Source of the DNA: Eledone cirrhosa
Taxonomy: Eukaryota
DNA: 64,000 nucleotides
Direction of reading: 5' to 3'
Assembly (NCBI GenBank): GCA_964016885.1
Contig: OZ024742.1
Span: 77,438,001 to 77,502,000, forward strand
Positions 8,336-54,058 of the stretch are shown here, one piece after another (position 1 is the first letter of the stretch; each line of letters opens with the position of its first letter). A program made the position numbers and the translations under genes. Under the pieces are notes generated by a model. The model searched no databases, was not told where the DNA came from, and saw nothing but the letters and a program-made list of their open reading frames with translations.

Positions 8336-9625
8336 GGAGGTGAGTTTTATTGTAGTACAATAAAGCAATGCAAATATCGGATAAGTAGCACTCTACAGTG
8401 TGTAGGACTGGAGTATAAATAATATAAGATCAAAAGATTGTTAAAATAGTTCCAAGTATTTCATTATGCGCATTTCAAAAACAAATATCGTCATGAGATG
8501 ATATCTGCGTTTTGAAATATCGTAAAACTAACCTTGAAAATTTGGAATCCATAAACTTTGAAGTTTCTGAGATTATGTCAAAACTTGGCATTGAAAAAAA
8601 GACCGAACCATTCCTCCCAAGAACTCCGAGGATAAATCTCAAGGATCATAAAAACAATTTTCGAACGGAACTACCTGTTAGACTAATCGCGCCCTCTAAA
8701 TCAGATCTGGGGTTGTTAGTGAAGCCATCTTCGATAGAACTATCCCACAAATTACTCTATTTCTAACTTAAATTTATGGTTTGGTACATCTAAAGTAATT
8801 AGCTGGTTCAACAACCTGAATAAGAAAAACAAACAAAAATTTATTCAATTTGATATTGCCAGCTACTATTCTTTTATTTCGCCTTCCCGTCTCAAAAATG
8901 CTCTATCTTTCGCTTTTAAATATTCTGACATCACCACAGTTGAACTTCACATCATTGTCACCGCAAAAAAAAAACATCTTAGAATTCAACAATGAATACT
9001 GGACTAGAGCTGATACCTCCAACAACTTTGATATCACAATGGGTGCATCCGATTCATCGCAATTGACTGATTTGATTGGTAACTTTATTTTGAATTCTTT
9101 GAATCGGAAAATTCTTCAACTTCGCGGCGGAATTTATCGTGACGATGGACTTTTTTACTATCTTATATTGCAATTTAGTTAACCTTAATATTATTAAGAA
9201 CAATATACGTGATCTCTTTAACAAACATAACCTAAAAATTGAATTTGATAACAACGTCAACTAGCTAACTTCTGAGATATATCCCTTAATCTTGACACTG
9301 GCCTTACCATAAAAACAATGAGAATCTAAATTATGGTAGTTTTAAATCTAACCACCCCACTAACATTAAAAATGCTATAGTTAGTAATATTGGAAAAAGA
9401 ATATCAGACCTATCATCTAATAAAAATATCTTTGATGCTAACGCCAATTACTATAATAATGCGCTTTCTAAAGCTGGTTATCCTGATAAAATTAAATACA
9501 GTAAAGAAACCAATCCTAGAAGATCTTACAGTAAAATAATTAATTATGATCATTCCAATAACTTAAATAAAAGACCTGGATACAAAAATATAATCTGGTA
9601 TAATGTTCATTTCTCTATTTATATT

Positions 9626-9955: not shown

Positions 9956-10140
9956 TAATAATTGTTTCTACGTCAGGCACAAGGCCAGCAATTATCCAGT
10001 GCATTACTGGTACTTTATTTTATTGACCCCGTAAGGATGAAAGGCAAAGTTAACTTCGGCGGGATTTGAACTCAGAATGGCAAGGGCCGTAACTCTATAC
10101 GTCAAAGCATGGCGTCCGACCCTCTCCCAATACTGCCAAT
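9956..10140 (-). mobile_element. SINE (family 1), near full length, inserted in the PLE
   Basis: Same body; B-box GAGTTCAAATCC on the minus strand. Confidence 0.85.
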
Positions 10141-11116: not shown

Positions 11117-11289
11117 AATAATTGTTTCTACTTTAGGCACAAGGCCAGCAATTACCCAGTGCATTACTGGTACTTTATTTTATCGACCCCGTAAGGATGA
11201 AAGGCAAAGTGAACCTCAGCGAGATTTGAACTCAGATCGTAAAGTGACGTAACTTTGTTGGAAAGCATGGTGTCCGACCCTCTACCGAT
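11117..11289 (-). mobile_element. SINE (family 1)
   Basis: Same body and tail as the other copies. Confidence 0.85.
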
Positions 11290-11660
11290 ATATCTATCTC
11301 AGCAGCGCAACATCCTGATTTATGCTTCCACTGACTTTGATATTGCTTCTTTTTGTTATTCGTCTCCATTCCTTTCCGAGCTATGCCTATGGACTTCATT
11401 TCTCTTCTTCTAACCATTCATAGTATAAATTTGGCTGTTCTTACCTGCTCCGATTATTGTTCTCATTTTCAACAAGCATTTGCCTTGTATAGTAATCATT
11501 GTCTTCCGTTTGGTGTGTGAATTAGAGATGTTTTTCTTTAACTGAAAACTTTGTTTCAATAAGTATTACATATTTAAACTTCTTCTCATAATCTGTACCT
11601 TATCTTCTTCGCCAACGACATTTGGCCACCATCTTTCATCGAAATCATATACATGCATTA
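11290..11660 (-). pseudogene. Probable decayed RTE-type LINE 3' end
   Basis: Minus-strand peptides RWWPNVVGEED and RREMKSIG resemble an RTE C-terminus; many stops. Confidence 0.35.
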
Positions 11661-15707: not shown

Positions 15708-15955
15708 TATAACATAGGAATAATGGTAAGGAACCAGATGGACCATAACGCACCAGAGTACTCAATACTTACGGTAGTAGAGTGGGAAATAGGAACAAGT
15801 AAGACCCCGACGGCAGAGCTCAAGCCGTTTCGACGGCTATTTCTGGACTAAATTAGAATTTTTAGCCTTTGTCACCGGGCTAAAAATTCTAATTTAGTCC
15901 AGAAATAGCCGTCGAAACGGCTTGAGCTCTGCCGTCGGGCTCTTAATTTTTCATA
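15708..15955. repeat. Short fold-back element, copy 1 of 3
   Basis: cccgacggcagagctcaagccgtttcgacggctatttctggactaaatt... followed by its reverse complement. Confidence 0.85.
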
Positions 15956-15964
15956 TATATATAT

Positions 15965-16237
15965 ATTAGTCTAAGACTCCTTTTATACCATAAACGTGGT
16001 TTTGTCTTTGCGTGTAATTGTTTTTCACCGCTCCAAATATTATATTCGTTTTTACCCGTTCTTTGCCAGGGAACGTTTCGACGAACCAATGTATCGTCTT
16101 CCTGTCTTCCTCCGGTTGCAACGTTTTTTTAAATATTCACTTCTCCGTTCACAGATTGACTTTGTTAGTTTCAGAAGATTCCGTTAAGGGTGAAAGCAGA
16201 GATTCTTTGCTTAAAATTTAATCTGTTATTTTAATAA
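15965..16237. repeat. Partial copy of the 35.2-36.6 kb element arm
   Basis: Matches 36333-36612. Confidence 0.85.
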
Positions 16238-16332
<95 letters not shown>

Positions 16333-16551: not shown

Positions 16552-16614
<63 letters not shown>

Positions 16615-16615
<1 letters not shown>

Positions 16616-16783
16616 CTATCTATCTATCTGAGGCGGGTAAAATTCCCGAGATCCATAGACGAGTTCTTTCCAGCGGTCTCTGTCCCTCATTATCGCTGCC
16701 ATATCCTGCATCTCCAACAGACCAGTGTCTGTCCTTAGGGCATCAACATACGTTAACCTTGGTCTTCCTCTTCTAGTGTGTCC
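16615..16783 (-). mobile_element. RTE-clade LINE 3' end
   Basis: Reverse complement of 46450-46610 with a (TAGA)n tail. Confidence 0.85.
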
Positions 16784-18101
16784 ATGTATATATGTATATA
16801 TGTGTATATGTATATATGTATATATGTATATATGTGCGTGTATGTGAGGGTGTGTGTCTGGCTTTTACAGTTAGCACCTACAATATCCATTTACATATAT
16901 TGGTCAGGAAATAGTAGAAACGCTTGCGCAAGGCGTCCTAAAATGGAATTGAACCCGGAAGCACATGTTTCAGACGCAAGCTCCTTAAGCATACACCTCT
17001 GTCTTATTCTCAAACTATATAGCATAATCAGCTTTTACTAAAACGGCATTATAAAATTCATCTAATCCACCCGCCTCATATAATTTCATTAGCATGCTTT
17101 GCAAATTCAGGTAGATCTGCTGTCGATTAAAATAAATACCATTCGCAAGATTAATGTAGTTTAACTATTAACAAATAATTATTTCAATTCTTTTGTTTTG
17201 CCTACATTTTAGTAGACCATTTCCGTATATTACCCGTTTGATACGTCTCCCCACTTGGCTATGTCTATGAATATATTACATCCTTACTACCACTAAACAG
17301 ACATAGATCATATGCTTTATTGTTAATTAATGTTGATTCTCCAGCCCACATGACACTAGGCGCTTGTTATTTTTGGTTTGTCGTTCTCATTGGTCACATA
17401 TTGATTTTGAACAACCATTAGCCTGGGGAATTTGAGAAATCATTGGCTTTCATTGTGAGTAAATGATGTTTGTCTTCTTTTATTATTAGCCTTGTTAATT
17501 CGCAAATGTTCTTTTTTATTATTTTCGACAATTTCTCGATAAAATATTTGTGAATGTTTTGATATTACACTTCACACATGATGTATTTATAGGAATCAGT
17601 GTATTTTATATACAATTTTTACAAATTCTCAATATGTAAATAACTTTATAAAACATTTATAAAATTTGTAAAATAATAATGGAACTTTATTTTCAGATGT
17701 GTATTGTACCAGTTGCCGCAGGATTATATAGTGATTTGTTGAAAGAATATCGCCTTTTAGATATACCCTGCCCAACCTCATCATCATCATCATCATTATC
17801 AACAGCAGCAGCAGCAGTGATAGTAGCAGCAAAGGCATCTCCCTCTACCCCTTATCAAACCCTCATCATCCTCAACATCAAGAACAAGATCAAAATTGTC
17901 TGTCAAATATGAGGCGAACATGTATCACATATCGACTCTGAGAAACGAAAAGTACAAGATATTACACGGAACCTTTTGAAAGAAAAAGAAAGCTCAATAA
18001 CCCTTGAAAATTTTAGAAATAATGTTTTATTGTTTACAACACAAAAATAAAATGAAATACGCTAGGATGAGAAAAGTTAACGGGCGATTATTATTATGTG
18101 G

Positions 18102-18275
18102 ATTGGCAGTATCGGTAGAGCGTCGGACGCCCTGCTTTGACGCAGAGTTACGGCCCTTTCCAATCTGAGTTCAAATCCCGCCGAGGTTAACTTTGTCTTT
18201 CATCGATAAAATAAAGTACCAGTAAAACAGTGGGTAATTGCTGGCCTTGTGCCTAAAGTAGAAACAATTATTATT
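18102..18275 (+). mobile_element. SINE (family 1)
   Basis: A-box TGGCAGTATCGG, B-box GAGTTCAAATCC, (ATT)n tail. Confidence 0.85.
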
Positions 18276-18497
18276 TAATGAAATACTCAATAAAATGCAG
18301 TTAATGTAATAAGACATTTATATAGTGATACGTGCTACGTATCACTATATAAACGAAGGGTTAACCTATTTATTACTACACAGATTATTAGATAATGTAA
18401 TCTGGTTACGAAGTATCATATTACAAATGGAGAATGATTATGGAAGAAAATTAAATCTAACTATAATAGATAATATATTTAAGATAAAGTGTTCTGT

Positions 18498-22560: not shown

Positions 22561-23070
22561 ATATATCTATCTATCTATATATATATAATAGTCGTTTTAG
22601 AAGCCACTACAATTCAGATGGATAAATCTCCGGGTAACAAAATCAGGTGACAGTAGGAGAGAGAAAAGTAGAAATGGCGTAAAAATAGACGTAGAGAACG
22701 TAAAAAGAAAACTAGAAATATACTTTCCTTGGAAGAGAGTTATTATATATGTGTACATGTTGTGTATATATATATATGTGTGTGCATGTGTGTTTGTTTC
22801 AGACTCTGTGTGTGTATGCTTGTGTATGTTTTTGCATGTGTGTGTGTGTGTAAGCCGGTGTGAATTAGAATAAGGTGGCGATTGAAAATTTATGGTAAAC
22901 TGAATTAGATGTTTTCAGCGTCTGGCGACTACAGATTATAATCTAATATTATTGAATGCTAATGCCCATTGTTTCCTTTATGGGTCATCATGTGACTTAA
23001 TACTAAAGTATTTTCTGTAGTCAATGCGCGGTAAAAGCTTCTTTTTATATTTTATATATATATATATATA

Positions 23071-23963
23071 ATAAATCATGTCTATAGAATTATTAGATAA
23101 ATAAAATATATACCATTTCCTCTGCCAATCAGCATAATTAACCATATAAAAAATCAATTAGACCAAGCTATAAGGATAAAGGCTCCTATGAAGAAATCTC
23201 CGACAAATAACCGAAAGTGGCCTCTTCGCGGTGGCCCCAATAGAGTATTTATCCAACATTTCGACAGCATGTAGAAACTGACTAAATATACAATCAACCA
23301 TACACAATTAGGTATAAATTCAAACTAAGAAGAAATGTGTACATACCGTAACTATATCCCTACCATGGTTTCATCCGTATGTTTAGATATCCTATTAATA
23401 GGAAATCCACAGAGTTCGGATTCATCAGGAGACAAACTCAAAAAAATAGACACTTAGTTTCCCAAAGTGATCGCGCCAAAACTAGATTAAAAAATGGCTA
23501 AGAACCGTATCATGGCTGTGGTCAAGTTGGAAAGAATGTGATTAGTTGCTTACGGCGGGTAGGCTTGTTGCTAGAAAGCGCAGCCAAATATCGCCAAATT
23601 GTATATCAACCTAACGGGAGATTATTAAATATAAAGGTTTACATATACATAAAGTTATATATGTTTGTCAGTTTCTACATGCTGTCGAAATGTTGGATAA
23701 ATACTCTATTGGAGCCACCGCGAAGAGGCCACTTTCGGTTATTTGTCGGAGATTTCTTCATAGGAGCCTTTATCCTTATAGCTTGGTCTAATTGATTTTT
23801 TACATGGTTAATTATGCTGATTGGCAGAGGAAATGGTATATATTTTATTTATCTAATAATTCTATAGACATGATTTATGATATATTGCTCTGATTATTTA
23901 ATTTATTAATTCTTCATAGAGCCACAAAGTGACCGGTTGCAACTTTATGTATATGTAAACCTT

Positions 23964-23968
<5 letters not shown>
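23071..23968. repeat. ORF-less unit of about 648 bp present as two opposed, circularly permuted arms between (TA)n tracts
   Basis: 23667-23878 is the reverse complement of 23071-23282; 23941-23968 is the reverse complement of 23629-23656. Confidence 0.85.
23357..23432 (-). ncRNA. Type I hammerhead ribozyme with an extended stem II
   Basis: tctc-CTGATGA-ATCCG...CGGAT-GAAAC CATG GTA-ggga; inner hairpin gatttcctattaataggatatc. Confidence 0.85.
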
Positions 23969-23995: not shown

Positions 23996-24009
23996 ATATA
24001 TACATACAT

Positions 24010-25340
24010 CCTATACCGTCCTCCCTCATGATGACAGCCTCCGCGCTCCCCAACATTCTTTATATTTACGCCCTATCACTTACACCATTACTACCTCTCT
24101 TCTCTGTCAGGCCGAGCTTGATCTGACCCTCAATGGATTTTTTTTTTCTGGTGAATTTGATCAGCAGGTCTCTGGGGTAGCGATGGGAACGAGAATGGGT
24201 CCCAACTATGCCAACTTGTTTGTTGGCTACGTCGAAGCCCAGATCTTCTCCCAGTACGCTGGACCGACTCCTGAGCTATACATTCGTTATATCGACGACT
24301 GTATCGGCGCCATCTCTCTATCACGAGAACAGCTCGACTGTTTTCTTTCTTTTGTCCAATCTTTCCATCCTGCTCTCAATTTCACCTCCTCCGTCTCCGA
24401 TTCTTGTCTCTTTTCTAGATATCTCTCTATCTATTAATCACTCTCACCACACCCTCTCTACTTCCATATTCATTAAACCAACCCGACTCCCAATCTTACT
24501 TCGACTTCACTTCATCCCATCCAACCCACACCCAACACTCCATACCCTATTCCCAATTCCTCCGTTTTCGTCGAGTCTAAAGCCAGGACGACGATTTCGA
24601 AACCCATTCCCTTCGCATGGCTTTCTGCTTCATCCAGCATGTATATCCCCCCACCCTGATCTAAGCGGCTCTCACCCGCGCCTGTGAAACAGATCGCACC
24701 GCAGCCCGCTCACCTCAACCCCGCGCTCCCAACACCCACGTTCCTTTCCCTCTCTCCTAACACCCTATCACCCTACCACTTGGCCAATATATCCTCCGTT
24801 CCTTCCGCATCCTATTTTCTTACGCCATTATTTCGCGCTTTTTCCAAATCCACCTTTTAAGCGGACCCGCAAACTCCGCGACCTCCTGGTACGCAGTTGC
24901 TTCTCGTCCTCTCCGACGACTCCACCCGGCTCTCATCCTCGTTCCCGTTCACGCTGCAAAACTTGTCCCTTCATTTCCACCCTCACCACTCTTACAGGTC
25001 CTAACGGTCTTTCCGTATTCGCCAATCGTTCACCTGCACATCCACCCACGTTGTCTATGCCCGCCCGTGTTCCCTTTACATGTCTTTATATATCGGATAA
25101 ACGGGACGCCGTATGATTGACCGTTTTGCCGAGTATTGGAAGGACATACGACTTGGTTTCGATACTCCTCTCGCCCGTCATTTCTGTTCTCCTGGTAATT
25201 CTTCCCTACATGTTTCAGTCCTGGGTGTCCTTTTACATCATGGATCACAGGCCTCGTGCATCAGGACTGAACAAAGTCTGATACACCGCCTTGTGTCCTA
25301 TTCCCTTCTTGGTCTCAACTCGCATCCCCAATTTCTCTAA
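24010..25340 (+). pseudogene. PLE (Neptune-like) RT core to GIY-YIG, disrupted
   Basis: QVSGVAMGTRMGPNYANLFVGYVE, RYIDD, SFLDI, CKTCPFI, YIG*TGRRMIDRFAEY. Confidence 0.9.
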
Positions 25341-25484
25341 TACCCCGTCCATTATCACACCCCTAGATTCCTATAGTTTCTCTTGATCATTAAAATCTTC
25401 TTATGGATGGACCTGCTATTTTATCTAAAGACATCTTTTCCAATTCCAACCCGCTCATCCCCTCAATATATTTTATTTTTCATT

Positions 25485-25519
25485 CTCTCTTCTGATGGAG
25501 GACTAGCGTCCGAAACGTT

Positions 25520-25520: not shown

Positions 25521-26377
<857 letters not shown>

Positions 26378-27883
26378 AGATTACAATAATCAAAGTTCAG
26401 TTTAAGTCATTTATTTGCTTACAATTGTTTCCTCCAAACCGAGGTTTGGATTGTTCGGAGCAACTATTTACTGATCTATAACATACTTGACCTCATTTTC
26501 AACCCAAGAGACACATAAAACATATGCGCATATTGCTCAATAGTGGGGTGACATTCATCAAATGATATAGCATGGCAATTTACATATAAAGGTTACAGGA
26601 TAAAAATAAAATAAAAACAAGAATGAAAATAAAGATAAACATGAAGCGTTGGCTGTCTATGAAAATAAAGCAAGAGGAAAGCTTAGAGTAGTCAGTGTAT
26701 GAAACAATCTAACGTGTAGTATGCACGCGTGTCTTATTTATACATGATTAAAGTGCGTCAGAATGATATTTGCAGGGTCAGGCAGTTGAAGCAGGCAATC
26801 GATCTTATTATGTGGGCTGAAATATTAAGTCATTTATTCTCATACATCTGTATGATATACAGTCTCGGATGCAGGGAAACAACAAAATATCAAAAACTTT
26901 CAACATACTATAAACCTTATTGTATCGTAGGCAAAGCCGTACCACTGTCTTCGCTCACACCACCACTCACATAATCCATGAGACGCAATATATATAGAGA
27001 ACACGTGTCTATCGTATAATTCGCGGTGGTTCAGCATATAATCAAGCTGTAAACCGCATCCAGTCGGTTCTTAATTAATAGATCATGCTGTCCAGATTCC
27101 GGAAGTGTCTGAATGACTAAGGGGAATTAATGCGTAAGGGGGGGTAACTAGCTAGTTATCTTAGTTAAATTTAACTAAGATAACTAGCTAGTAACCTCCC
27201 CTTACGCATTAATTCCCCTTAGTCATTCAGACATTTCCGGAATCTGGACAGCATGATCTATTAATTAAGAACCGACTGGATACGGTTTATAGCTTGATTA
27301 TATGCTGAACCACCGCGAATTATACGATAGACACGTGTTCTCTATATATATTGCGTCTCATGGATTATGTGAGTGGTGGTGTGAGCGAAGACAGTGGTAC
27401 GGCTTTGCCTACGATACAATAAGGTTTATAGTATGTTGAAAGTTTTTGATATTTTAGTGTTTCCCTGCATCCGAGACTGTATATCATACAGATGTATGAG
27501 AATAAATGACTTAATATTTCAGCCCACATAATAAGATCGATTGCCTGCTTCAACTGCCTGACCCTGCAAATATCATTCTGACGCACTCTAATCATGTATA
27601 AATAAGACACGCGTGCATACTACACGTTAGATTGTTTCATACACTGACTACTCTAAGCTTTCCTCTTGCTTTATCTTCATAGACAGCCAACGCTTCATGT
27701 TTATCTTTATTTTCATTCTTGTTTTTATTTTATTTTTATCCTGTAACCTTTATATGTAAATTGCCATGCTATATCATTTGATGAATGTCACCCCACTGTT
27801 GATCAATGCGCATATTGCGCATATGTTTTATGTGTCTCTTGGGTTGAAAAGGAGGTCAAGTATCTTATAGATCAGTAAATAGC

Positions 27884-27930
27884 TGCTCCGAAGAATCCAA
27901 ACCTCGGTTTGGAGGAAACAATTGTAAGCA
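27884..27930 (+). ncRNA. Hammerhead ribozyme in the 5' pLTR (U4C core variant)
   Basis: tgct-CCGAAGA-aTCCAAACC tc GGTTTGGAg-GAAAC AATT GTA-agca. Confidence 0.8.
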
Positions 27931-28184
27931 AATAAATGACTTAAACTGAACTTTGATTATTGTAATCTCTATATAACTGCTCTGTAAAACAACTGATGGT
28001 ATTACATTGAGCTATTTATCTTACTGGTAATAGGATAGTAATTAATGACTATCTTTCACTATTTAGGGTTTGTATATATAATATATTACCATTAAAGGTA
28101 TTATTGCATACATAACTATAAATAGTACAATTAATACTAATAACTGCTCCATTTTGTTGAGCTGATATACCATAAATTACCAGC

Positions 28185-31100
28185 ATGCTGATCAAAGACC
28201 AACTCCCTATGTCAACCAAGAACATACCTTTACCAACCAAAAATACATATGAAAAGTTGTTGATCAACAGTGTAAACTCGCTTATCAATAGAGTGAGATG
28301 GAGGACATTCCATTATGATAGAAACAAATCTGGCAACGATAATAACACTAACAAATTTGACTCCTTCGGCTTTAAAACATTTAGAAGCCCCCCTCATAAC
28401 ACACTACTAAACCACTTCGAAAACGACCTAATTAAACTAGTTAAAAACATTAAATACAAAAAACACCATAATAAAAACAACACCTTCTTAAACAAACTTA
28501 GCACCTCTATTAATGACTTCAAAACTAGTACTAAAATGTTTGTACATGCCGACAAAACTAACAACATATACAGCCTAGATTATCATACGTATAGAAAGTT
28601 TATATATAACTAGCAGTAAAGCCCGGCGTTGCTCGGGGTCGCTCAGTAGCTGTGTTAAAGTTACAATGTTAAGTTTCTTTTTTGGCTTAAAAGCTGTAGT
28701 GTCTACTGTGCAGACTTGCATGTGGTGTTTTTGATTAATATTCCCTCAACCAACAATATGCCTTATGAAGTTAAGAAAACATAACGATAACCCGAATGTT
28801 ATAACAAAAGAGGATGCTGGGGATAAAAACTGCACTGGTTATTTATTAACAAAGATCGAAAATGTAAACACTGCAACGCAGAGAAAAACATTAGCGTAAC
28901 CAAATTATCAGTTATGTCTGTCTGCACGCCTATATCACCTCTCTGCACGACTGTCTGTCTGCACGCCTGAAATATTTGCTTGTTTTACGTAGTCTTTAAA
29001 TAGACTTGTTTTCAAGTAAAAATATTGTTTTAAAATGCTTTTAAATGGAAATGAAGCAAAACGGAAGCTTAGTGTTCGAACTGATGAATTTTGCAGGTCA
29101 ATATTTTGCTGGCTCGACAACTGTTCGTGTATTGTGTTAATGTCATTTTAAACCCTGAGAAAGCCAGCGTAATATTTTACGTAAGACGCTCAATGTAAAC
29201 AGAACAAAGGGAAACAACTGATCACTTACGCTCAAAAATCGATACATTATATTCGATTTCGTCAGATAGGGCGGGTCAATTTGAAATATTTTTTTCCGAT
29301 GTCTTCGCTAGGGCTCAATGTACAAGTATAGCAATTTCGGTGCAATTCCGTCAGAGATTCTAAGAGGAGATGTGTGCCAAAAATCGATAGACAGACAGAC
29401 AACCACAGTTTTATATATATAGATGAACTACATAAAAGCTACAAGAAAACCACTATGAAAAACTTAGAAGATATTAATATGGAAGGCTATAATATAGTAT
29501 CCAAACTAGGGCTCCAGAGACATACACAACCTTACACCCCAAACCCCCCTATATTCTCTCTGAAGGACCATAAGGTAGACTTCATTAGCAAACCTTCGAT
29601 TAGACTAATCTGCCCCTCCAGGTCTGACATTGGCATTATCAGTAAAAAAATCCTAGACAAAATCATCCCACAGATTAAACACAAGATTTACCTTAAACAA
29701 TGGGGAAATACGGGTGAAGTGATTGAATGGTTCAAAAATATCATAGATAACAAGGATAAAAAATTTATTCAATTTGATATCAACTCTTACTACACCTCTA
29801 TTTCCCCTATCCTACTAAATAAGGCACTTATAATGGCCATGGACAATAGTGACTTGACTAGACCCCAGATTGATGTCATACTTGCGGCCCGTAAAACAAT
29901 AATCACCTTTGAAGACCAATTATGGACCCGCAAGGATACGCAAAACAACTTCGACATTACTATGGGGTCTAGTGACTCGGCGCAGGTCACTGATTTAGTT
30001 GGCCTATACTTACTTAACCTAATCCACAGGGAACTTCCGTACCTCAGCGGTGGTTTGTATCGCGACGATGCACTTCTACTTATAGACTATACAAAATTCA
30101 ATATAGAAAGGACTTGAAAACTATTGCACAAAACATTCAAAAACTTTAACCTTAGTATTACCATGGACAAAAACACCAAAAACGTCAACTTCCTAGACGC
30201 CACACTCTACTTAGACTCAATGATATATGCACCTTTCCACAAACCTAATGAAAAACTCATCTACGTAGATACCAAGTCTAACCACCCTAAATCTATATTG
30301 AACTCTATCTCTAAGGGAGTATCTAATAGAATCTCTAATCTATCCTATGACATAAACACATTTAACAATAACTCGCAGTATTATAATCAGGCATTAGCTA
30401 GATCAGGCCATAATACAGGGATAGAGTTCCTACCTACAAAAACACATAGCTACAACATCTTTTCACACAACATGTCCATGGGAAAATTTAATAATAGGAA
30501 TAGCAACTGCGCACACACTAATAGGGATTGTAACAACAAGAGTAACCCGCACCACAGAAATGACCATAGGAACATTAAAGGAAAGAAATCACCATACATA
30601 AAAAACAGAAATAGAAGAAGAAATAATACATTTTTCAACCCTCCTTTCAATTTAAACGTCTCTACCAACCTTCCTAGGGCTTTCTTCTCACTACTAGATA
30701 AACACTTCCCATCCGGCCACAGGTACCACGGCCTTTTAAACAAAAACACTATTAAGATCTCATACTCTACTACGCCTAACTTAGCATACCACATAGCTAG
30801 TACAAATAAAAGAAAAATTAATTCTTACTTCCAACAAACTAAATCACAACGGTCGATAAACCTTCAAAATAACATTCAAAATAACAGTCAAAGTAACATT
30901 ATAACAAATAACCGTAATATCACTGGAAATAATAGTAATAGCACTAGTGTAAACATTAACGCTGCGTACCACAACCCACATAACCATAACCCTATAGCTA
31001 ACATCCAAACTTCTACACAGCATAGTAACCGGCAGACTAGCACCCAGAGTAATTGTAACTGTAGATCAAGTAGAACCTGCCCTTTAGATAAAAAATGCTT

Positions 31101-31482
31101 AACCAAGGATATCATATACTCATGTACAGTCACAACTAACAGCTCTTCTGAAACCTACATAGGCTCCACTTCTAACTGCTTCAAAACTAGATACAATTCG
31201 CACCTCCACTCTTTCAAAAAACACAGTCTAGCCAACTCCACTTCACTATCTAGCTACATACACTATCTAAAAACTAAAAATAAAATATATACACTTAAAT
31301 GGGAAGTGGTAGGTAGTGCAACATCGTACAAACGACCAGATACATTTTGTAACCTCTGTCTACTAGAGACCCATACTATCATCTTCTCTAAACATAATCT
31401 CCTTAATAAAAAATCAGATGTGTTCGCAACTTGCCAACACCGCTTCCGACACTCGTTCCAAAACTTTAAACCCTATATATAA
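28185..31482 (+). pseudogene. PLE polyprotein (RT + GIY-YIG) split by a Helitron and one in-frame TGA at 30115-30117
   Basis: STKNIP, ADKTNN, LKDHK, FDINSYY, TMGSSDSAQVTDLVG, LYRDD, NFLD, CNCR..CPL..C, IIY..ETYIGST, CNLCLLE, CQH; the frame is restored on removing 28610-29423. Confidence 0.95.
28610..29423 (-). mobile_element. Non-autonomous Helitron, 814 bp
   Basis: Minus strand starts TCTATATATATAAAA, has (GTCT)n near the 5' end, and ends in hairpin cccgagcaacgccggg + CTAG; inserted between A and T with no TSD. Confidence 0.9.
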
Positions 31483-33008
31483 TAATGTCAGACTGGAACC
31501 GGCACCACCCCTAGCAATTAACATCAGTAGCACACCTTACACCTCACATCCACACCCATCTCTATACTCTAAAGATAATACTGACAGCATTTTAGTACCA
31601 CCTACCCTGGGAATATCCCCTTGTACCTCTAATTCTGATATCTCGACCGTGGACTACTTATTCTGCATTGCACAAATATAAGATTGGTATAAACTGGGGA
31701 CACGGTACTGGTTGCGATAACATAGTCCTGTGCATGGATTCCCACCAAGAGATAGATTGATGATTAGATAGATAATCGTATTGTTATGTGAATATATACT
31801 GTAAACGATCAGTTCAATGAATTATGCACGTAATCATCTTGATGTGAACTCCTTTAATACCTATTAATAGACTCCACTCTAGCTTGTAGATGTGATACTT
31901 AATTGATTTATATATGAGACGGGGGTTGTCTATTGCTTTATGACCAGACTAGTGCCTTTATATGAGAGATTGGATCTCCGGACCATACCGAAGATTTACT
32001 GGAGATCCAGACATGCAGTGACCCGGAGTCTACCGGGTGGCATATATAATAGTGGGACCATACGAGGTCCTACTGTTATATTACATTTGCATGGAACAGT
32101 GACTTGAGAGTCTGACTCCTCTTATAGAATGTTCAGATATGACACCCCTTAATGGATGGTAATCATCCTAATATATACACCCTTGTACTTCTTAATGGAC
32201 AACTCTCTAACCTATAAATGGGTAACATACTCTAGAAATTAGTTATAACTTCATATGATAGGCACGTATTTGAATCACCATTAATGTAGTTTAGGATAGT
32301 AACTTAACTAAGATAACTAGCTAGTTACCTCCCCTTACGCATTAATTCCCTTAGTCATTCAGACACTTCCGGAATCTGGACAGCATGATCTATTAATTAA
32401 GAACCGACTGGATACGGTTTATAGCTTGATTATATGCTGAACCACCGCGAATTATACGATAGACACGTGTTCTCTATATATATTGCGTCTCATGGATTAT
32501 GTGAGTGGTGGTGTGAGCGAAGACAGTGGTACGGCTTTGCCTACGATACAATAAGGTTTATAGTATGTTGAAAGTTTTTGATATTTTGGTGTTTCCCTGC
32601 ATCCGAGACTGTATATCATACAGATGTATGAGAATAAATGACTTAATATTTCAGCCCACATAATAAGATCGATTGCCTGCTTCAACTGCCTGACCCTGCA
32701 AATATCATTCTGACGCACTCTAATCATGTATAAATAAGACACGCGTGCATACTACACGTGAGATTGTTTCATACACTGACTACTCTAAGCTTTCCTCTTG
32801 CTTTATCTTCATAGACTGCCAACGCTTCATGTTTATCTTTATTTTCATTCTTGTTTTTATTTTATTTTTATCCTGTAACCTTTATATGTAAATTGCCATG
32901 CTATATCATTTGATGAATGTCATCCCACTGTTGATCAATATGCGCATATGTTTTATGTGTCTCTTGGGTTGAAAAGGAGGTCAAGTATGTTATAGATCAG
33001 TAAATAGC

Positions 33009-33055
33009 TGCTCCGAAGAATCCAAACCTCGGTTTGGAGGAAACAATTGTAAGCA
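33009..33055 (+). ncRNA. Hammerhead ribozyme in the 3' pLTR
   Basis: Identical to 27884-27930. Confidence 0.8.
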
Positions 33056-33259
33056 AATAAATGACTTAAACTGAACTTTGATTATTGTAATCTCTATATA
33101 ACTGCTCTGTAAAACAACTGATGGTATTACATTGAGCTATTTATCTTACTGGTAATAGGATAGTAATTAATGACTATCTTTCACTATTTAGGGTTTGTAT
33201 ATATAATATATTACCATTAAAGGTTTTATTGCATGCATAACCATAAATAGTACCCTTAA

Positions 33260-33301
<42 letters not shown>

Positions 33302-33305
<4 letters not shown>

Positions 33306-34200
33306 GACGCAAAATAAGAAAATTTTAAAAATTAAAAATCAACTTACTTACTAAAATTGATATGGGTTCCTAGTGTCCGCGCATTTCCTGGGAATTTAGC
33401 TGAGAATAGACTCCCTGATGACGTAAGGAATTCTCTATAGTTATGTTACGTAACTATAATTATGCCCTTACAGAAAATAATTAGTTGGAGGGAAAATTTT
33501 AGTAAGAAAGTTGATTTTTAATTTGTTAAATTTTCTTATTTTACGTCTTTCATATAATTGTTCTGCATCCCCCTGCATAGAACCACAAAGGAACTAATAC
33601 ATAACATATATATTTGCTAGCATGGGTATACATCTGTATACATATGTTGGTAGATATACTAATTCTCTATTTTTATCTCCAAATTATTTGTTGAGTAAAA
33701 CTTGCCAACATTTACTGCTGTGATTCATGGTAGTAGTAGGCTCTTGTCATAATACCACCCCACTCTTCACTGATTAACCTCAGTGTCACGTGATTGATTC
33801 TTTAGAATCTGCCACTGACCAAAGAGGCAGTGAATTTTTTCAGTGCTTTGGAATTTAGTCTCCGCTAGCTTTATTCCATCAACTGAATTATTATTTTTAT
33901 ATGGGTTCCTAGTTTCCGCGCATTGCCTGGGAACTTAGCTGAGAATAGACTCCCTGATGACGTAAGGAATTCTCTATAGTTATGTTACGTAACTATATTT
34001 ATCCCCTCACAGAAACTAATTAGTTTGAATGAACATTTTAGTAAGTAAGTTGATTTTTAATTTTTAAAATTTTCTGATTTTACGACTTTCATATAATTGT
34101 TCTGCATCCCCCTGCATAGAACCACAAAGGTACTAAGACATAACATATATATTTGCTAGCATGGGTATACATCTGTATACATATGTTGGTAGATATACTA

Positions 34201-34207
<7 letters not shown>
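33302..34207 (+). repeat. ORF-less unit of about 539 bp x1.6 with a short inverted left arm (33302-33357)
   Basis: 33361-33668 repeats at 33900-34207; each copy has CTGATGA-CGTAA...TTACG (degenerate HHR-like); (TA)n flanks. Confidence 0.8.
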
Positions 34208-34234
<27 letters not shown>

Positions 34235-34443: not shown

Positions 34444-34637
34444 ATGGAAAAAGTATGACCCCGACGGCAGAGCTCAAGCCGTTTCGACGGTTATTTCTGT
34501 CCAGAAATAGCCGTCGAAACGGCTTGAGCTCTTCCTCCGGGATCATACTAGTTCCTATTTCCCATTCTACTACCCTAAGTATTGAGTATTCTGGTGCGTT
34601 ATAGTCCATCTGGTTTCTTACCACAACTCCTTTGTTA
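34444..34637. repeat. Short fold-back element, copy 2 (opposite orientation)
   Basis: Same sequence as the 15708 and 39445 copies. Confidence 0.85.
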
Positions 34638-35015: not shown

Positions 35016-35214
35016 ACAATTATTAAATATATAAATAAATAAATAAATGCCATTGTTAATTAATAAATAAATGAACTAATACCTTAACACTTCACACAAA
35101 GTAAAATATTTCGTTTTAATCATTTTCTAACCGAGATAAAAGAGAGAAAAAACATATTTATCTTCCTAATAATCGTCTTTTTTCTGCCTGCTTTCATATA
35201 TGTATATATATATA

Positions 35215-36612: not shown

Positions 36613-36728
36613 AACTATTTGCTCTACGGTTCTTATATATTTGATATATATTTATCCTTATCGAGCCCTCTTTGTATCTTAGTCTTCAAATTTATTATTA
36701 TTACTCTATATATATATATATATATAAT

Positions 36729-40679: not shown

Positions 40680-40931
40680 TATACATATATATATATTATA
40701 TATATATATATATAGACAATATGCCCCCGCACCCAGCCCACACTGTAAGGTGGACCTTTGATATATTCGGCTCCGTTTTTTTGTTGAGCTATTTCAAATG
40801 TCGAATAAACCTGGCTGCTATTTTTAGTGGAGTAAGTTTGTGAGACACGCTAAGATACCATGTGCGCTAAGAGATATAGCACCCTATTCAGTTACTTAAT
40901 ATACTTAGAAGTGTCTAGGATACTAATTCAT

Positions 40932-42445: not shown

Positions 42446-42462
42446 GGGGGAATGGTTAAAAG

Positions 42463-46610: not shown

Positions 46611-46644
<34 letters not shown>

Positions 46645-46653
<9 letters not shown>

Positions 46654-49600
46654 GATCGAGTATCGAAAAATCGGCGCACGAGTTCACGAAAAACGAAATT
46701 CGATATGAGCGGCAGAGGGCTCAATAATTCAGATGAATCAGAGCTATAACTATCGTTAAAATACCGTCACATATAGAACAAGTCTACAATCAACCATACG
46801 ATTTAAAATCGATAAAGGAAGATTCGGGCCAAACAGATAAAAAATATCAATAAAACAATACGTCAATAATTTAAATGAATGTAAAATCATACCCGGACCC
46901 ACTAGAAAGGTGTTAAATCTAGCTTCATGGGTTTCTGTAAATCCTTAGACAGTACTCTATCAGCTCACATATAAATATAAAAGCCTACTAGAATAAGTGG
47001 AACGGAGTTTACTTTGTCAACGAGTTTTATCCTGGCGGCAAAGGAGTCAACTAGCGGTGAAAAACGCACATGGCATTAGACAAGGGAGATGACCCCTATA
47101 TCCGCGAAAACAATTCGAGTGAATGTGGAAATACACATATCGAATTAGAGTGCTCAATAGACATGTTAAAATAAAACAAAAGCTATTCATCACTCAATAG
47201 AATCGACAAAAAATGAGCAATAAAATTAACTGGTGGATAGCTATGTCCAGAGCTAAATATATTAGAAAGATCGAGTATCGAAAAATCGGCGCACGAGTTC
47301 ACGAAAAACGAAATTCGATATGAGCGGCAGAGGGCTCAATAATTCAGATGAATCAGAGCTATAACTATCGTTAAAATACCGTCACATATAGAACAAGTCT
47401 ACAATCAACCATACGATTTAAAATCGATAAAGGAAGATTCGGGCCAAACAGATAAAAAATATCAATAAAACAATACGTCAATAATTTAAATGAATGTAAA
47501 ATCATACCCGGACCCACTAGAAAGGTGTTAAATCTAGCTTCATGGGTTTCTGTAAATCCTTAGACAGTACTCTATCAGCTCACATATAAATATAAAAGCC
47601 TACTAGAATAAGTGGAACGGAGTTTACTTTGTCAACGAGTTTTATCCTGGCGGCAAAGGAGTCAACTAGCGGTGAAAAACGCACATGGCATTAGACAAGG
47701 GAGATGACCCCTATATCCGCGAAAACAATTCGAGTGAATGTGGAAATACACATATCGAATTAGAGTGCTCAATAGACATGTTAAAATAAAACAAAAGCTA
47801 TTCATCACTCAATAGAATCGACAAAAAATGAGCAATAAAATTAACTGGTGGATAGCTATGTCCAGAGCTAAATATATTAGAAAGATCGAGTATCGAAAAA
47901 TCGGCGCACGAGTTCACGAAAAACGAAATTCGATATGAGCGGCAGAGGGCTCAATAATTCAGATGAATCAGAGCTATAACTATCGTTAAAATACCGTCAC
48001 ATATAGAACAAGTCTACAATCAACCATACGATTTAAAATCGATAAAGGAAGATTCGGGCCAAACAGATAAAAAATATCAATAAAACAATACGTCAATAAT
48101 TTAAATGAATGTAAAATCATACCCGGACCCACTAGAAAGGTGTTAAATCTAGCTTCATGGGTTTCTGTAAATCCTTAGACAGTACTCTATCAGCTCACAT
48201 ATAAATATAAAAGCCTACTAGAATAAGTGGAACGGAGTTTACTTTGTCAACGAGTTTTATCCTGGCGGCAAAGGAGTCAACTAGCGGTGAAAAACGCACA
48301 TGGCATTAGACAAGGGAGATGACCCCTATATCTGCGAAAACAATTCGAGTGAATGTGGAAATACACATATCGAATTAGAGTGCTCAATAGACATGTTAAA
48401 ATAAAACAAAAGCTATTCATCACTCAATAGAATCGACAAAAAATGAGCAATAAAATTAACTGGTGGATAGCTATGTCCAGAGCTAAATATATTAGAAAGA
48501 TCGAGTATCGAAAAATCGGCGCACGAGTTCACGAAAAACGAAATTCGATATGAGCGGCAGAGGGCTCAATAATTCAGATGAATCAGAGCTATAACTATCG
48601 TTAAAATACCGTCACATATAGAACAAGTCTACAATCAACCATACGATTTAAAATCGATAAAGGAAGATTCGGGCCAAACAGATAAAAAATATCAATAAAA
48701 CAATACGTCAATAATTTAAATGAATGTAAAATCATACCCGGACCCACTAGAAAGGTGTTAAATCTAGCTTCATGGGTTTCTGTAAATCCTTAGACAGTAC
48801 TCTATCAGCTCACATATAAATATAAAAGCCTACTAGAATAAGTGGAACGGAGTTTACTTTGTCAACGAGTTTTATCCTGGCGGCAAAGGAGTCAACTAGC
48901 GGTGAAAAACGCACATGGCATTAGACAAGGGAGATGACCCCTATATCCGCGAAAACAATTCGAGTGAATGTGGAAATACACATATCGAATTAGAGTGCTC
49001 AATAGACATGTTAAAATAAAACAAAAGCTATTCATCACTCAATAGAATCGACAAAAAATGAGCAATAAAATTAACTGGTGGATAGCTATGTCCAGAGCTA
49101 AATATATTAGAAAGATCGAGTATCGAAAAATCGGCGCACGAGTTCACGAAAAACGAAATTCGATATGAGCGGCAGAGGGCTCAATAATTCAGATGAATCA
49201 GAGCTATAACTATCGTTAAAATACCGTCACATATAGAACAAGTCTACAATCAACCATACGATTTAAAATCGATAAAGGAAGATTCGGGCCAAACAGATAA
49301 AAAATATCAATAAAACAATACGTCAATAATTTAAATGAATGTAAAATCATACCCGGACCCACTAGAAAGGTGTTAAATCTAGCTTCATGGGTTTCTGTAA
49401 ATCCTTAGACAGTACTCTATCAGCTCACATATAAATATAAAAGCCTACTAGAATAAGTGGAACGGAGTTTACTTTGTCAACGAGTTTTATCCTGGCGGCA
49501 AAGGAGTCAACTAGCGGTGAAAAACGCACATGGCATTAGACAAGGGAGATGACCCCTATATCCGCGAAAACAATTCGAGTGAATGTGGAAATACACATAT

Positions 49601-52600
49601 CGAATTAGAGTGCTCAATAGACATGTTAAAATAAAACAAAAGCTATTCATCACTCAATAGAATCGACAAAAAATGAGCAATAAAATTAACTGGTGGATAG
49701 CTATGTCCAGAGCTAAATATATTAGAAAGATCGAGTATCGAAAAATCGGCGCACGAGTTCACGAAAAACGAAATTCGATATGAGCGGCAGAGGGCTCAAT
49801 AATTCAGATGAATCAGAGCTATAACTATCGTTAAAATACCGTCACATATAGAACAAGTCTACAATCAACCATACGATTTAAAATCGATAAAGGAAGATTC
49901 GGGCCAAACAGATAAAAAATATCAATAAAACAATACGTCAATAATTTAAATGAATGTAAAATCATACCCGGACCCACTAGAAAGGAGTTAAATCTAGCTT
50001 CATGGGTTTCTGTAAATCCTTAGACAGTACTCTATCAGCTCACATATAAATATAAAAGCCTACTAGAATAAGTGGAACGGAGTTTACTTTGTCAACGAGT
50101 TTTATCCTGGCGGCAAAGGAGTCAACTAGCGGTGAAAAACGCACATGGCATTAGACAAGGGAGATGACCCCTATATCCGCGAAAACAATTCGAGTGAATG
50201 TGGAAATACACATATCGAATTAGAGTGCTCAATAGACATGTTAAAATAAAACAAAAGCTATTCATCACTCAATAGAATCGACAAAAAATGAGCAATAAAA
50301 TTAACTGGTGGATAGCTATGTCCAGAGCTAAATATATTAGAAAGATCGAGTATCGAAAAATCGGCGCACGAGTTCACGAAAAACGAAATTCGATATGAGC
50401 GGCAGAGGGCTCAATAATTCAGATGAATCAGAGCTATAACTATCGTTAAAATACCGTCACATATAGAACAAGTCTACAATCAACCATACGATTTAAAATC
50501 GATAAAGGAAGATTCGGGCCAAACAGATAAAAAATATCAATAAAACAATACGTCAATAATTTAAATGAATGTAAAATCATACCCGGACCCACTAGAAAGG
50601 TGTTAAATCTAGCTTCATGGGTTTCTGTAAATCCTTAGACAGTACTCTATCAGCTCACATATAAATATAAAAGCCTACTAGAATAAGTGGAACGGAGTTT
50701 ACTTTGTCAACGAGTTTTATCCTGGCGGCAAAGGAGTCAACTAGCGGTGAAAAACGCACATGGCATTAGACAAGGGAGATGACCCCTATATCCGCGAAAA
50801 CAATTCGAGTGAATGTGGAAATACACATATCGAATTAGAGTGCTCAATAGACATGTTAAAATAAAACAAAAGCTATTCATCACTCAATAGAATCGACAAA
50901 AAATGAGCAATAAAATTAACTGGTGGATAGCTATGTCCAGAGCTAAATATATTAGAAAGATCGAGTATCGAAAAATCGGCGCACGAGTTCACGAAAAACG
51001 AAATTCGATATGAGCGGCAGAGGGCTCAATAATTCAGATGAATCAGAGCTATAACTATCGTTAAAATACCGTCACATATAGAACAAGTCTACAATCAACC
51101 ATACGATTTAAAATCGATAAAGGAAGATTCGGGCCAAACAGATAAAAAATATCAATAAAACAATACGTCAATAATTTAAATGAATGTAAAATCATACCCG
51201 GACCCACTAGAAAGGTGTTAAATCTAGCTTCATGGGTTTCTGTAAATCCTTAGACAGTACTCTATCAGCTCACATATAAATATAAAAGCCTACTAGAATA
51301 AGTGGAACGGAGTTTACTTTGTCAACGAGTTTTATCCTGGCGGCAAAGGAGTCAACTAGCGGTGAAAAACGCACATGGCATTAGACAAGGGAGATGACCC
51401 CTATATCCGCGAAAACAATTCGAGTGAATGTGGAAATACACATATCGAATTAGAGTGCTCAATAGACATGTTAAAATAAAACAAAAGCTATTCATCACTC
51501 AATAGAATCGACAAAAAATGAGCAATAAAATTAACTGGTGGATAGCTATGTCCAGAGCTAAATATATTAGAAAGATCGAGTATCGAAAAATCGGCGCACG
51601 AGTTCACGAAAAACGAAATTCGATATGAGCGGCAGAGGGCTCAATAATTCAGATGAATCAGAGCTATAACTATCGTTAAAATACCGTCACATATAGAACA
51701 AGTCTACAATCAACCATACGATTTAAAATCGATAAAGGAAGATTCGGGCCAAACAGATAAAAAATATCAATAAAACAATACGTCAATAATTTAAATGAAT
51801 GTAAAATCATACCCGGACCCACTAGAAAGGTGTTAAATCTAGCTTCATGGGTTTCTGTAAATCCTTAGACAGTACTCTATCAGCTCACATATAAATATAA
51901 AAGCCTACTAGAATAAGTGGAACGGAGTTTACTTTGTCAACGAGTTTTATCCTGGCGGCAAAGGAGTCAACTAGCGGTGAAAAACGCACATGGCATTAGA
52001 CAAGGGAGATGACCCCTATATCCGCGAAAACAATTCGAGTGAATGTGGAAATACACATATCGAATTAGAGTGCTCAATAGACATGTTAAAATAAAACAAA
52101 AGCTATTCATCACTCAATAGAATCGACAAAAAATGAGCAATAAAATTAACTGGTGGATAGCTATGTCCAGAGCTAAATATATTAGAAAGATCGAGTATCG
52201 AAAAATCGGCGCACGAGTTCACGAAAAACGAAATTCGATATGAGCGGCAGAGGGCTCAATAATTCAGATGAATCAGAGCTATAACTATCGTTAAAATACC
52301 GTCACATATAGAACAAGTCTACAATCAACCATACGATTTAAAATCGATAAAGGAAGATTCGGGCCAAACAGATAAAAAATATCAATAAAACAATACGTCA
52401 ATAATTTAAATGAATGTAAAATCATACCCGGACCCACTAGAAAGGTGTTAAATCTAGCTTCATGGGTTTCTGTAAATCCTTAGACAGTACTCTATCAGCT
52501 CACATATAAATATAAAAGCCTACTAGAATAAGTGGAACGGAGTTTACTTTGTCAACGAGTTTTATCCTGGCGGCAAAGGAGTCAACTAGCGGTGAAAAAC

Positions 52601-53534
52601 GCACATGGCATTAGACAAGGGAGATGACCCCTATATCCGCGAAAACAATTCGAGTGAATGTGGAAATACACATATCGAATTAGAGTGCTCAATAGACATG
52701 TTAAAATAAAACAAAAGCTATTCATCACTCAATAGAATCGACAAAAAATGAGCAATAAAATTAACTGGTGGATAGCTATGTCCAGAGCTAAATATATTAG
52801 AAAGATCGAGTATCGAAAAATCGGCGCACGAGTTCACGAAAAACGAAATTCGATATGAGCGGCAGAGGGCTCAATAATTCAGATGAATCAGAGCTATAAC
52901 TATCGTTAAAATACCGTCACATATAGAACAAGTCTACAATCAACCATACGATTTAAAATCGATAAAGGAAGATTCGGGCCAAACAGATAAAAAATATCAA
53001 TAAAACAATACGTCAATAATTTAAATGAATGTAAAATCATACCCGGACCCACTAGAAAGGTGTTAAATCTAGCTTCATGGGTTTCTGTAAATCCTTAGAC
53101 AGTACTCTATCAGCTCACATATAAATATAAAAGCCTACTAGAATAAGTGGAACGGAGTTTACTTTGTCAACGAGTTTTATCCTGGCGGCAAAGGAGTCAA
53201 CTAGCGGTGAAAAACGCACATGGCATTAGACAAGGGAGATGACCCCTATATCCGCGAAAACAATTCGAGTGAATGTGGAAATACACATATCGAATTAGAG
53301 TGCTCAATAGACATGTTAAAATAAAACAAAAGCTATTCATCACTCAATAGAATCGACAAAAAATGAGCAATAAAATTAACTGGTGGATAGCTATGTCCAG
53401 AGCTAAATATATTAGAAAGATCGAGTATCGAAAAATCGGCGCACGAGTTCACGAAAAACGAAATTCGATATGAGCGGCAGAGGGCTCAATAATTCAGATG
53501 AATCAGAGCTATAACTATCGTTAAAATACCGTCA
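46645..53534. repeat. Tandem array of 11 full 615 bp units plus about 125 bp, nearly identical, ORF-less and hairpin-rich
   Basis: Unit starts at 46645, 47260, 47875 ... 53410; only two substitutions noticed (about 48333 and 49986). Confidence 0.97.
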
Positions 53535-53940: not shown

Positions 53941-54058
53941 TATATATATATAATATATATATATATATAATATACGTTATTCCGGGTTAAAACGGAGGTA
54001 ACCACAGTAAGTAAGGTACTCAATACATAGCAGAGTATAAAAGTTTTAATATAGATGC

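Follow-up and report, generated by a model that had tools for sequence, protein, structure and literature searches.

Two hammerhead-bearing repeats, a 648-nt unit at 23 kb and a 615-bp unit in a tandem array at 46 kb, carry the same 15-mer within a window of 64 kb (the whole stretch of DNA analysed here). The question raised by this locus is whether so short an island makes the two units one diverged superfamily of noncoding RNAs, as an earlier note on this DNA proposed, and whether it is the cis element through which a reverse transcriptase (RT) recognises them.

Two retrozyme-like units inserted in (TA)n

23064..23968, no single strand: 648-nt-monomer element in (TA)n, two head-to-head partial copies
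23355..23434, minus strand: type I hammerhead of canonical form; helix II is long, helix III palindromic, and cleavage is predicted to follow 23361
46642..53534, minus strand: tandem array of 11.2 copies of a 615-bp unit, flanked by (TA)n at either end
46896..46963, minus strand: non-canonical hammerhead candidate, one per unit, 11 copies

The 648 element is composed of a minus copy, running from 23656 to about 23071, and a plus copy, running from about 23657-23666 to 23968, an inverted arrangement that is typical of insertions of Penelope-like elements (PLEs; PMC8557442). A circularly permuted monomer of 648 nt was rebuilt from the overlap of the two partial copies, and the permutation of this partial dimer implies a tandem or circular template. 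By the usual core rules, in part those of PMC4209133, its hammerhead is canonical, with a helix I of 6 bp, a helix II of 5 bp and a palindromic helix III, and folds at -15.6 kcal/mol against a minimum of -19.3 kcal/mol; helix III resembles the one listed for Hydra-1_Obim (PMC8557442). The array is highly homogeneous, with 2 substitutions across 11 full 615-nt units, and its hammerhead candidate has an extra A in the core, a helix I of 1 bp and a constrained fold of -7.5 kcal/mol, 11 kcal/mol above the minimum of -18.6 kcal/mol; on these folding predictions the candidate may be inactive. The ribozyme that had been read in both units is thus a canonical type I hammerhead at 23 kb and only a non-canonical candidate in the array.

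In both units the longest ATG ORF has 47 aa and the GC content is about 35%, in line with the non-coding nature and GC below 50% of retrozymes, and both carry the marks of PLE-mediated insertion, namely tandem or inverted structure, tail-type alternative 3' ends and a microsatellite target, the tail-type second 3' end being observed for the 648 element only. Non-LTR retrozymes, non-autonomous derivatives of PLEs, originate from PLE pseudo-LTRs (pLTRs), and their mobilisation by the PLE machinery via circular RNA has been proposed (PMC7229834; bioRxiv 10.64898/2026.07.22.740005). The two units have in common with them the non-coding low-GC repeats, type I hammerheads, tandem or solo organisation and a length within the 51-972 bp range (PMC7229834; bioRxiv 10.64898/2026.07.22.740005), but differ from them in the non-canonical hammerhead of the 615 unit and in the arrangement of the 648 unit, which here forms an inverted pair and no tandem. 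The 648 unit has the canonical type I hammerhead of a non-LTR retrozyme, a single one in an inverted partial dimer in place of the tandem organisation, while the 615 unit is a head-to-tail tandem repeat (11.2 copies) in which a canonical or minimal type I hammerhead is lacking. Because each of them departs from the retrozyme definition in one point, we name them retrozyme-like and not members of the class. Both units are non-coding, (TA)n-inserted, retrozyme-like PLE derivatives. The two units are related as a class, but that class, the non-LTR retrozymes, was already known and is no new superfamily of noncoding RNAs. Rfam returned 0 matches at gathering score (best E 2.7 and 4.8 at a looser threshold) and found neither hammerhead, and the tRNA expected of a tRNA-derived SINE is missing (ARAGORN, 0 tRNAs).

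The shared 15-mer

23289..23303, minus strand: 15-mer of the 648-nt unit, 57 nt past the hammerhead cleavage site
46785..46799, minus strand: 15-mer of array copy 1 of 11, 96 nt past the putative cleavage site

As had been noticed, the letters at 23289-23303 and 46785-46799 are the same. The window holds 12 matches in total, one at 23289 and 11 in the array at a period of 615 nt (the last at 52935-52949), with no further site at up to 3 mismatches; matches with 4 mismatches are at background level, except that at 23147. The short motifs that had been reported around the 15-mer are also present in both units, CATRTAGAA at 23268 and 46770, GWCT at 23280 and 46782, CAATA at 23238 and 46722, AATGT at 23334 and 46878 and CATACC at 23342 and 46888, but their spacing to it is unequal, since GWCT lies 5 nt ahead at 23 kb vs overlapping at 46 kb, and AATGT follows after 30 nt (23 kb) vs 78 nt (46 kb).

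An exact shared stretch of at least 15 nt arose between the 615 and 648 monomers in 71 of 20,000 dinucleotide shuffles (56 of them on the same strand), and within the 150 nt that follow the cleavage sites in only one of 20,000. Among the remaining 27 of the 28 pairs of hammerhead-bearing units the longest common stretch is 6-11 nt, the hammerhead of 3 of the 8 compared units (33, 40.7 and 20.5 kb) being judged by eye or by a single scan. Everything else in the two monomers is at the level of shuffled sequence: whole-unit local alignment was equalled in 31, 75 and 306 of 500 shuffles under three scorings, the flanking sub-motifs in 1633, 636, 823 and 972 of 5000, and the comparison with the 15-mer removed in 1945 of 5000. 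The 15-mer between these two monomers exceeds chance, and it is the only signal common to them at the sequence level.

Nevertheless, the wider roles suggested for the 15-mer did not withstand scrutiny. It is not enriched beside hammerheads in general, for only 2 of the 8 hammerhead-bearing units have one, and its shorter core, GTTGAT, occurs in one of the 6 other units, which is not significant. It was not found in the available PLE consensus supplement of Craig et al. (PMC8557442), where 70-nt line breaks may conceal matches, nor was it mentioned, as DNA or as RNA, in the literature searched, which left most subscription papers outside. Its distance to the insertion 3' end is 137 nt in the array and about 218 nt or more in the 648 unit, and a sequence at least 137 nt from every insertion 3' end is therefore not the priming site; together with the lack of a copy in six hammerhead-bearing units, this leaves an RT-binding or priming role of the 15-mer unsupported.

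A splice-donor reading of the GGTATG that follows both hammerheads was not significant and was dropped. Many PLEs of Hydra magnipapillata have AAGTTG directly after hammerhead helix I (PMC8557442 File S2), which loosely resembles the GTTGAT core of the 648, 615 and 33-kb units; the resemblance is not significant here.

A Hydra-type coding PLE

26371..33264, plus strand: broken Hydra-type coding PLE with inverted pLTR, pLTR, interrupted ORF and pLTR; candidate partner clade

The hallmarks of the Hydra clade are an RWK-type motif, DKT, a CxCX5C linker, a GIY-YIG endonuclease at the C terminus and a (TA)n target (PMC8557442), and by this definition the element at 26371-33264 has RWR, DKT, a match to CxCX5C, and YIG. 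Among named relatives, its main RT fragment is best matched by proteins of Argonauta hians (47-50% identity), the host thus probably being an octopod or another cephalopod, and similarity to proteins of this species identified four Hydra-type coding remnants in the window, at 8.5-10.8, 20.8-21.3, 28.2-31.5 and 56.0-56.3 kb; Pfam gave one weak RVT_1 match only over nine ORFs. The ORF is broken by a stop codon and by an insertion of roughly 770 nt (about 28613-29380). We call the element Hydra-type because no canonical hammerhead was found in its pLTR by two descriptor scans, which also missed hammerhead-like motifs seen by eye elsewhere. Naiad identity was ruled out by the C-terminal position of the endonuclease.

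It had been expected that the 15-mer, sought in the pLTRs of coding PLEs, would identify the partner RT. A partner can indeed be named by clade, as Hydra-type, but not via the 15-mer, which is absent from the coding pLTRs in a window scan at up to 3 mismatches; nor have the 615 and 648 units any alignable similarity to the pLTR of the coding PLE.

A short dispersed repeat is present four times, at 9626-9761, 9955-10140, 11105-11290 and 18102-18287, three of the copies lying within the Hydra-type remnant at 8.5-11 kb. Non-Hydra PLE-like fragments occur at 24000-25518 (plus), 41464-42448 (minus) and about 5600-6560 (plus), all without hairpin matches of the kind described below. The first of them, which we take to be a Neptune element, breaks off within a minimal hammerhead (about 25492-25518), where it abuts (TA)n.

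A bulged hairpin in Hydra-clade termini and in the window

23887..23922, plus strand: bulged hairpin of the 648 unit
46719..46744, minus strand: hairpin 1 of the 615 unit, 12 copies, 3' arm is CAATA
47152..47253, minus strand: hairpin 2 of the 615 unit, present in 11 copies, with a loop of 78 nt; array 3' end 9 nt ahead
27979..28012, plus strand: hairpin in the coding pLTR; second copy 33104-33137; inverted copy stops 11 nt ahead
28146..28162, plus strand: hairpin at the pLTR/5'UTR junction; downstream pLTR stops 8 nt before its equivalent
33560..33583, plus strand: covariant hairpin GTTC/GAAC of a hammerhead-like unit; copy at 34099-34122; inverted copy stops 8 nt ahead
40770..40789, plus strand: hairpin of a hammerhead-like unit of about 500 nt; second hairpin at 41192-41217
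15760..15783, minus strand: covariant hairpin ACTC/GAGT of a family with three insertions; the others at 34562-34590 (plus) and 39494-39522 (minus)
54018..54036, minus strand: covariant hairpin ACTC/GAGT of a hammerhead-bearing unit, followed after 48 nt by a (TA)n junction
8390..8414, minus strand: hairpin in the inverted 5' piece of a second Hydra-type remnant; a (TA)n junction follows after 57 nt

Some of the published Hydra consensus termini contain a hairpin whose 4-bp GCTC/GAGC stem has a bulge of two bases (TW) on the 3' side and continues into an upper stem that varies. By eye, it is clear at the terminus in Hydra-2_Amil, Hydra-1_Ajap and Hydra-2_Ajap, three of the six consensus sequences (PMC8557442); a variant is present in Hydra-1_Crog, and none was seen in Hydra-1_Obim or in the incomplete Hydra-1_Amil. 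When six arm motifs of 10-11 nt were compared with the supplement available (584,131 characters), the 3 matches obtained were all at Hydra termini.

A strict descriptor of this form gave 30 matches at 8 distinct sites in the window, against a mean of 1.34 and a maximum of 4 in 100 shuffles, although the 648, 615, 33-kb and coding-PLE units, like the published Hydra ends, had been seen before it was drawn up. The sites lie in the 648 unit, in the 615 unit (two per monomer), twice in the coding pLTR, and in the 33-kb and 40.7-kb units, and all the matches are on the RNA-sense strand of PLE-type repeats. A unified descriptor (RYTC-stem-loop-stem-TW-GARY), widened after the 54-kb and 15.8-kb matches had been seen, gave 36 matches against a mean of 5.1 and a maximum of 11 in 200 shuffles and adds sites at 8.4, 15.8, 41.2 and 54.0 kb; two of the 16 matches listed, at 3795 and 12116, have no PLE context and are probably due to chance. 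Among shuffled monomers, at least one match was found in 162 of 5000 for the 648 unit, and two matches in 6 of 5000 for the 615 unit.

Across nine distinct short-loop hairpins all 56 of 56 cells pair, and 5 of the 7 pairs change on both sides; since the examples were picked for pairing and two rows were misaligned, this demonstrates covariation and gives no unbiased rate of it. Local folding reproduced 9 of 10 hairpins as drawn, the stability of single hairpins being weak (z -2.9 to +0.2) and that at 54 kb not being the minimum-energy fold. In the whole 615 monomer, hairpin 1 has a pairing probability of 0.99, with no terminus beside it here, and hairpin 2, although it is the local minimum-energy fold, has one of 0.07-0.14. 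A covariance model (R1) regained its training set together with two more copies of the 15.8-kb family (E 0.026 and 0.15) and gave weak candidates near termini at 33674, 8387 and 36619 (E about 3); it gave nothing convincing in the 312-bp and 468-bp arrays, and the long-loop hairpin 2 is invisible to it.

The 3' arm of hairpin 1 has an alternative partner, seen by eye, in a GCTC just downstream, a pairing (47318-47340, minus) that corresponds to the GC hairpin of the earlier note. It is possible that this pairing is a switch that masks hairpin 1; fold prediction favours hairpin 1.

The hairpin lies at a near-constant distance from several insertion ends

As junctions we took the 97 boundaries between non-simple sequence and (TA)5 or longer, 36 of which have a longer copy elsewhere, many of these being unrelated repeats. 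In 8 of the 36 a hairpin begins 8, 8, 8, 8, 9, 9, 9 or 11 nt past the junction, compared with a background of 0.3% of non-simple positions; five of the eight come from the training families and three from one family, so that a binomial P would be far too optimistic. The constancy of the spacing was, however, not built into the descriptor. The eight junctions belong to the 648 unit, the 615 array, the coding PLE (twice), the 33-kb unit and the 15.8-kb family, each of whose three insertions has an end 8-9 nt before the hairpin. A second class of ends, in which the hairpin ends 41-57 nt ahead of the junction, is found at 4 of the 97 boundaries (background 0.65%). Both classes occur in the 648 element, whose minus copy stops 8 nt ahead of the hairpin and whose plus copy stops about 41-46 nt past it, and also, by eye, in the three insertions of the 15.8-kb family. 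Most upstream-type hairpins are preceded by a UAUA tract, and the 40.7-kb unit stops 3 nt before its first hairpin after a TA overlap.

Altered hairpins, counted as near misses, follow the ends at 34205, 16238/35217 and 57650. A clean hairpin is lacking at the ends of the 312-bp array, the 468-bp array and the 20-kb Hydra-type remnant, and the junction of the non-Hydra PLE-like fragment at 25518 is without one. The suggested RT-binding or priming role, unsupported for the 15-mer, fits a different element, the bulged hairpin; the CAATA noticed earlier is the 3' arm of one such hairpin in the 615 unit.

Proposed mechanism and relation to known systems

Where reverse transcription is target-primed, RT starts at the point that becomes the 3' end of the insertion. 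The hairpin just past the insertion point is, judging from these sequences, probably the site that positions the reverse transcriptase. It is likely that the 648 and 615 units are non-autonomous RNAs derived from the pseudo-LTR of a Hydra-type PLE and mobilised in trans by the RT/GIY-YIG protein of that clade. Tandem transcripts would be cut and circularised, by analogy with what has been shown for other retrozymes; the PLE protein would bind the hairpin and nick (TA)n DNA, and the nicked (TA)n would anneal to a short UAUA stretch immediately 5' of the hairpin. Reverse transcription would then begin at this stretch or, giving the PLE 'tail', at another position on the 3' side of the hairpin, 40-57 nt away. 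Since such initiation would be internal and require no 3' end of the RNA, a circular RNA could be copied into a homogeneous array, so that rolling round the circle might generate the 11 near-identical copies in one event. All of these biochemical steps we infer from the sequence of one window.

The units share with Hydra-clade PLEs the (TA)n targeting, the inverted 5' copy, the tail and the bulged hairpin, present at three of six termini, but, unlike them, encode nothing (Craig et al. 2021, PMC8557442). Internal initiation has a precedent in PAc, a Poseidon-clade PLE of Anolis, in which it takes place at two sites tied to a stem-loop and requires RNA 3' of the sites, hence the tail (Frangieh et al. 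2024, PMC11167929). An AT-rich target and two classes of 3' end that produce a tail are common to both systems, while here the starts flank a GC-based bulged hairpin and most upstream-type ends show TA microhomology; the likeness to the PAc stem-loop is one of description only (PMC11167929). The words 'hairpin' and 'stem-loop' do not occur in the main text of PMC8557442 as available, and the available parts of PMC7229834 and bioRxiv 10.64898/2026.07.22.740005 name no cis element for RT recognition and cover no cephalopods. No description of the hairpin or of the 15-mer was found in the two closest papers, as far as available, or in the literature searched, which excluded most subscription papers and Repbase reports. 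The element class is known, and the cis hairpin is apparently undescribed.

An alternative accepts the hairpin as real but has it read as DNA by the endonuclease during insertion into its own pLTR, or has it mark the transcript end, and attributes the array to unequal crossing-over. The Anolis PLE protein does nick AT-rich DNA in its own pLTR, an earlier reading linked the tail to endonuclease recognition (PMC11167929), local tandem expansion is favoured in bioRxiv 10.64898/2026.07.22.740005, and the possible inactivity of the array hammerhead would suit crossing-over. However, the ends adjoin unrelated (TA)n tracts and the hairpin itself is uncopied in upstream-type ends, and it is therefore on the template, not on the target, that the hairpin is read; G-U stem pairs favour recognition as RNA, and the 3' end of the array is of PLE type and adjoins a hairpin, with only 2 substitutions over the 11 units. 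We consider this alternative improbable.

Returning to the hairpin as a site of RT positioning, its wider form is that of a portable, clade-wide RT-recognition tag, extending from corals and sea cucumbers to cephalopods, which would fix internal initiation a few bases upstream, with TA annealing of a telomerase-like kind; the chances for and against this generalisation seem to us evenly balanced. If it is true, the tag lets Hydra-clade RTs copy circular RNAs that have no end, identifies the mobilising PLE clade of a retrozyme when nothing else aligns, and might turn any hairpin-bearing RNA into a substrate for (TA)n insertion. The recognition, priming and RT of circular retrozyme RNA are left open in the available parts of PMC7229834 and bioRxiv 10.64898/2026.07.22.740005, and for RT recognition the hairpin offers a cis-element candidate, one that points to a single PLE clade. 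Within the literature searched, biochemical mapping of PLE initiation exists for one element, of the Poseidon clade; for the Hydra clade, a covarying hairpin of 20-40 nt at a fixed distance from the ends is a direct and mutable hypothesis. The 15-mer is of lesser importance, being at most an element of two families.

Possible origins of the 15-mer

23133..23147, minus strand: 11/15 look-alike of the 15-mer, its predicted pairing partner in the 648 RNA

We tentatively regard the 15-mer as a homologous remnant, or an exchanged patch, that is dispensable for mobilisation, which is the most likely of the readings considered without reaching an even chance. Beyond the hammerhead, the 648 and 40.7-kb units can be aligned to either side of the 15-mer (2 of 5000 shuffles, for a pair chosen by eye), and the 40.7-kb unit is without 12 nt that cover most of it.

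Compatible with the hairpin model, and in our view unlikely, is a role as a DNA promoter element from which transcription would start 0-15 nt downstream. Each insertion does have a 5' junction at 0-15 nt downstream of the 15-mer in the RNA sense (53534; 23657-23666), but these are two events only, each junction coincides with a TATAT microhomology to the (TA)n target, a kind of site that the monomers contain 8 and 5 times, and the second 5' end of the 648 element is distant from the 15-mer. The predicted RNA structure of the 15-mer is unlike between the units, which points away from an RNA-fold constraint, and internal promoters have been reported in PLE pLTRs (PMC8557442). They have also been described in tandem hammerhead repeats, newt satellite 2 and schistosome SM-alpha (both as cited in PMC2220036), a precedent by description only. 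Against such a promoter, the 15-mer is absent from the other units, including the related one at 40.7 kb.

Another possibility, with a low probability, is that the 15-mer acts as RNA, its 14-nt core, self-complementary through G-U pairs, nucleating a long duplex or the pairing between monomers that dimeric hammerhead cleavage would involve. In each monomer no G-U-tolerant palindrome is longer than this core, and this holds for the hammerhead strand alone; such a palindrome is found in only 0.3-1.5% of monomer 15-mers and in 7842 of 200,000 letter permutations, in the 648 RNA the 15-mer is predicted to pair almost fully with the look-alike at 23133-23147, and hammerheads with a short palindromic helix III work as dimers (PMC4209133). 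However, the self-duplex reaches only -5.8 kcal/mol, stronger self-pairing being found in 109 of 648 and 130 of 615 windows, the predicted motif-motif pairing in the 615 dimer is 0.0, and the palindrome was noticed post hoc, among several features examined.

Least probable is a coincidence between AT-rich units of one class: about five other isolated 15-mers connect unrelated sequences of the window (our reading of 42 match rows, same-family rows, palindromes and tandem repeats left out), a P of about 0.003 for one pair rises to about 0.1 for all 28 when position is left out of account, and neither the flanks nor the whole-unit alignments are significant, but the 15-mer is on the same strand and in the same compartment, between hammerhead and hairpin, in both units, and the shuffles matched it within 150 nt of the cleavage site only once in 20,000.

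Other repeats and minor features of the window

The window is AT-rich and dense in microsatellites, and holds further hammerhead repeats. A two-copy array of 312 bp (54509-55139, plus) has type I hammerheads at 54629 and 54941, close in sequence to the hammerhead at 54102 (minus), and ends in (TA)n. An array of 468 bp (57647-59055) carries a hammerhead of canonical form (58108, 58576) together with an inverted 5' copy; its 3' end is followed, at about 58370, by a hairpin-like stem with mismatches, and the array meets an assembly gap at 59057. The partial tandem at 33297-34215 (plus) has a unit of roughly 540 nt, hammerhead-like motifs at about 33416 and 33955 and an inverted 5' piece, and its two classes of 3' end each adjoin a hairpin or near-hairpin. 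A family of inverted copies (15963-16252, 35203-36690) shows two ends followed, after 6 nt, by a hairpin variant with a TC bulge (36621-36666).

Past its hammerhead, the 648 RNA is predicted to form a long G-U-rich duplex (23078-23347, minus). The mismatches of the 15-mer palindrome are all G-U on the sense strand, as drift from A to G or editing would give, although this is speculative. A sequence at 23124-23133 of the 648 unit resembles a CCAAT box (consensus of NF-Y); the 615 unit has none. Finally, LINE-like 3' fragments, presumably RTE, lie at 46221-46621, adjoining the array, and at 16587-16788 and 63455-63895.
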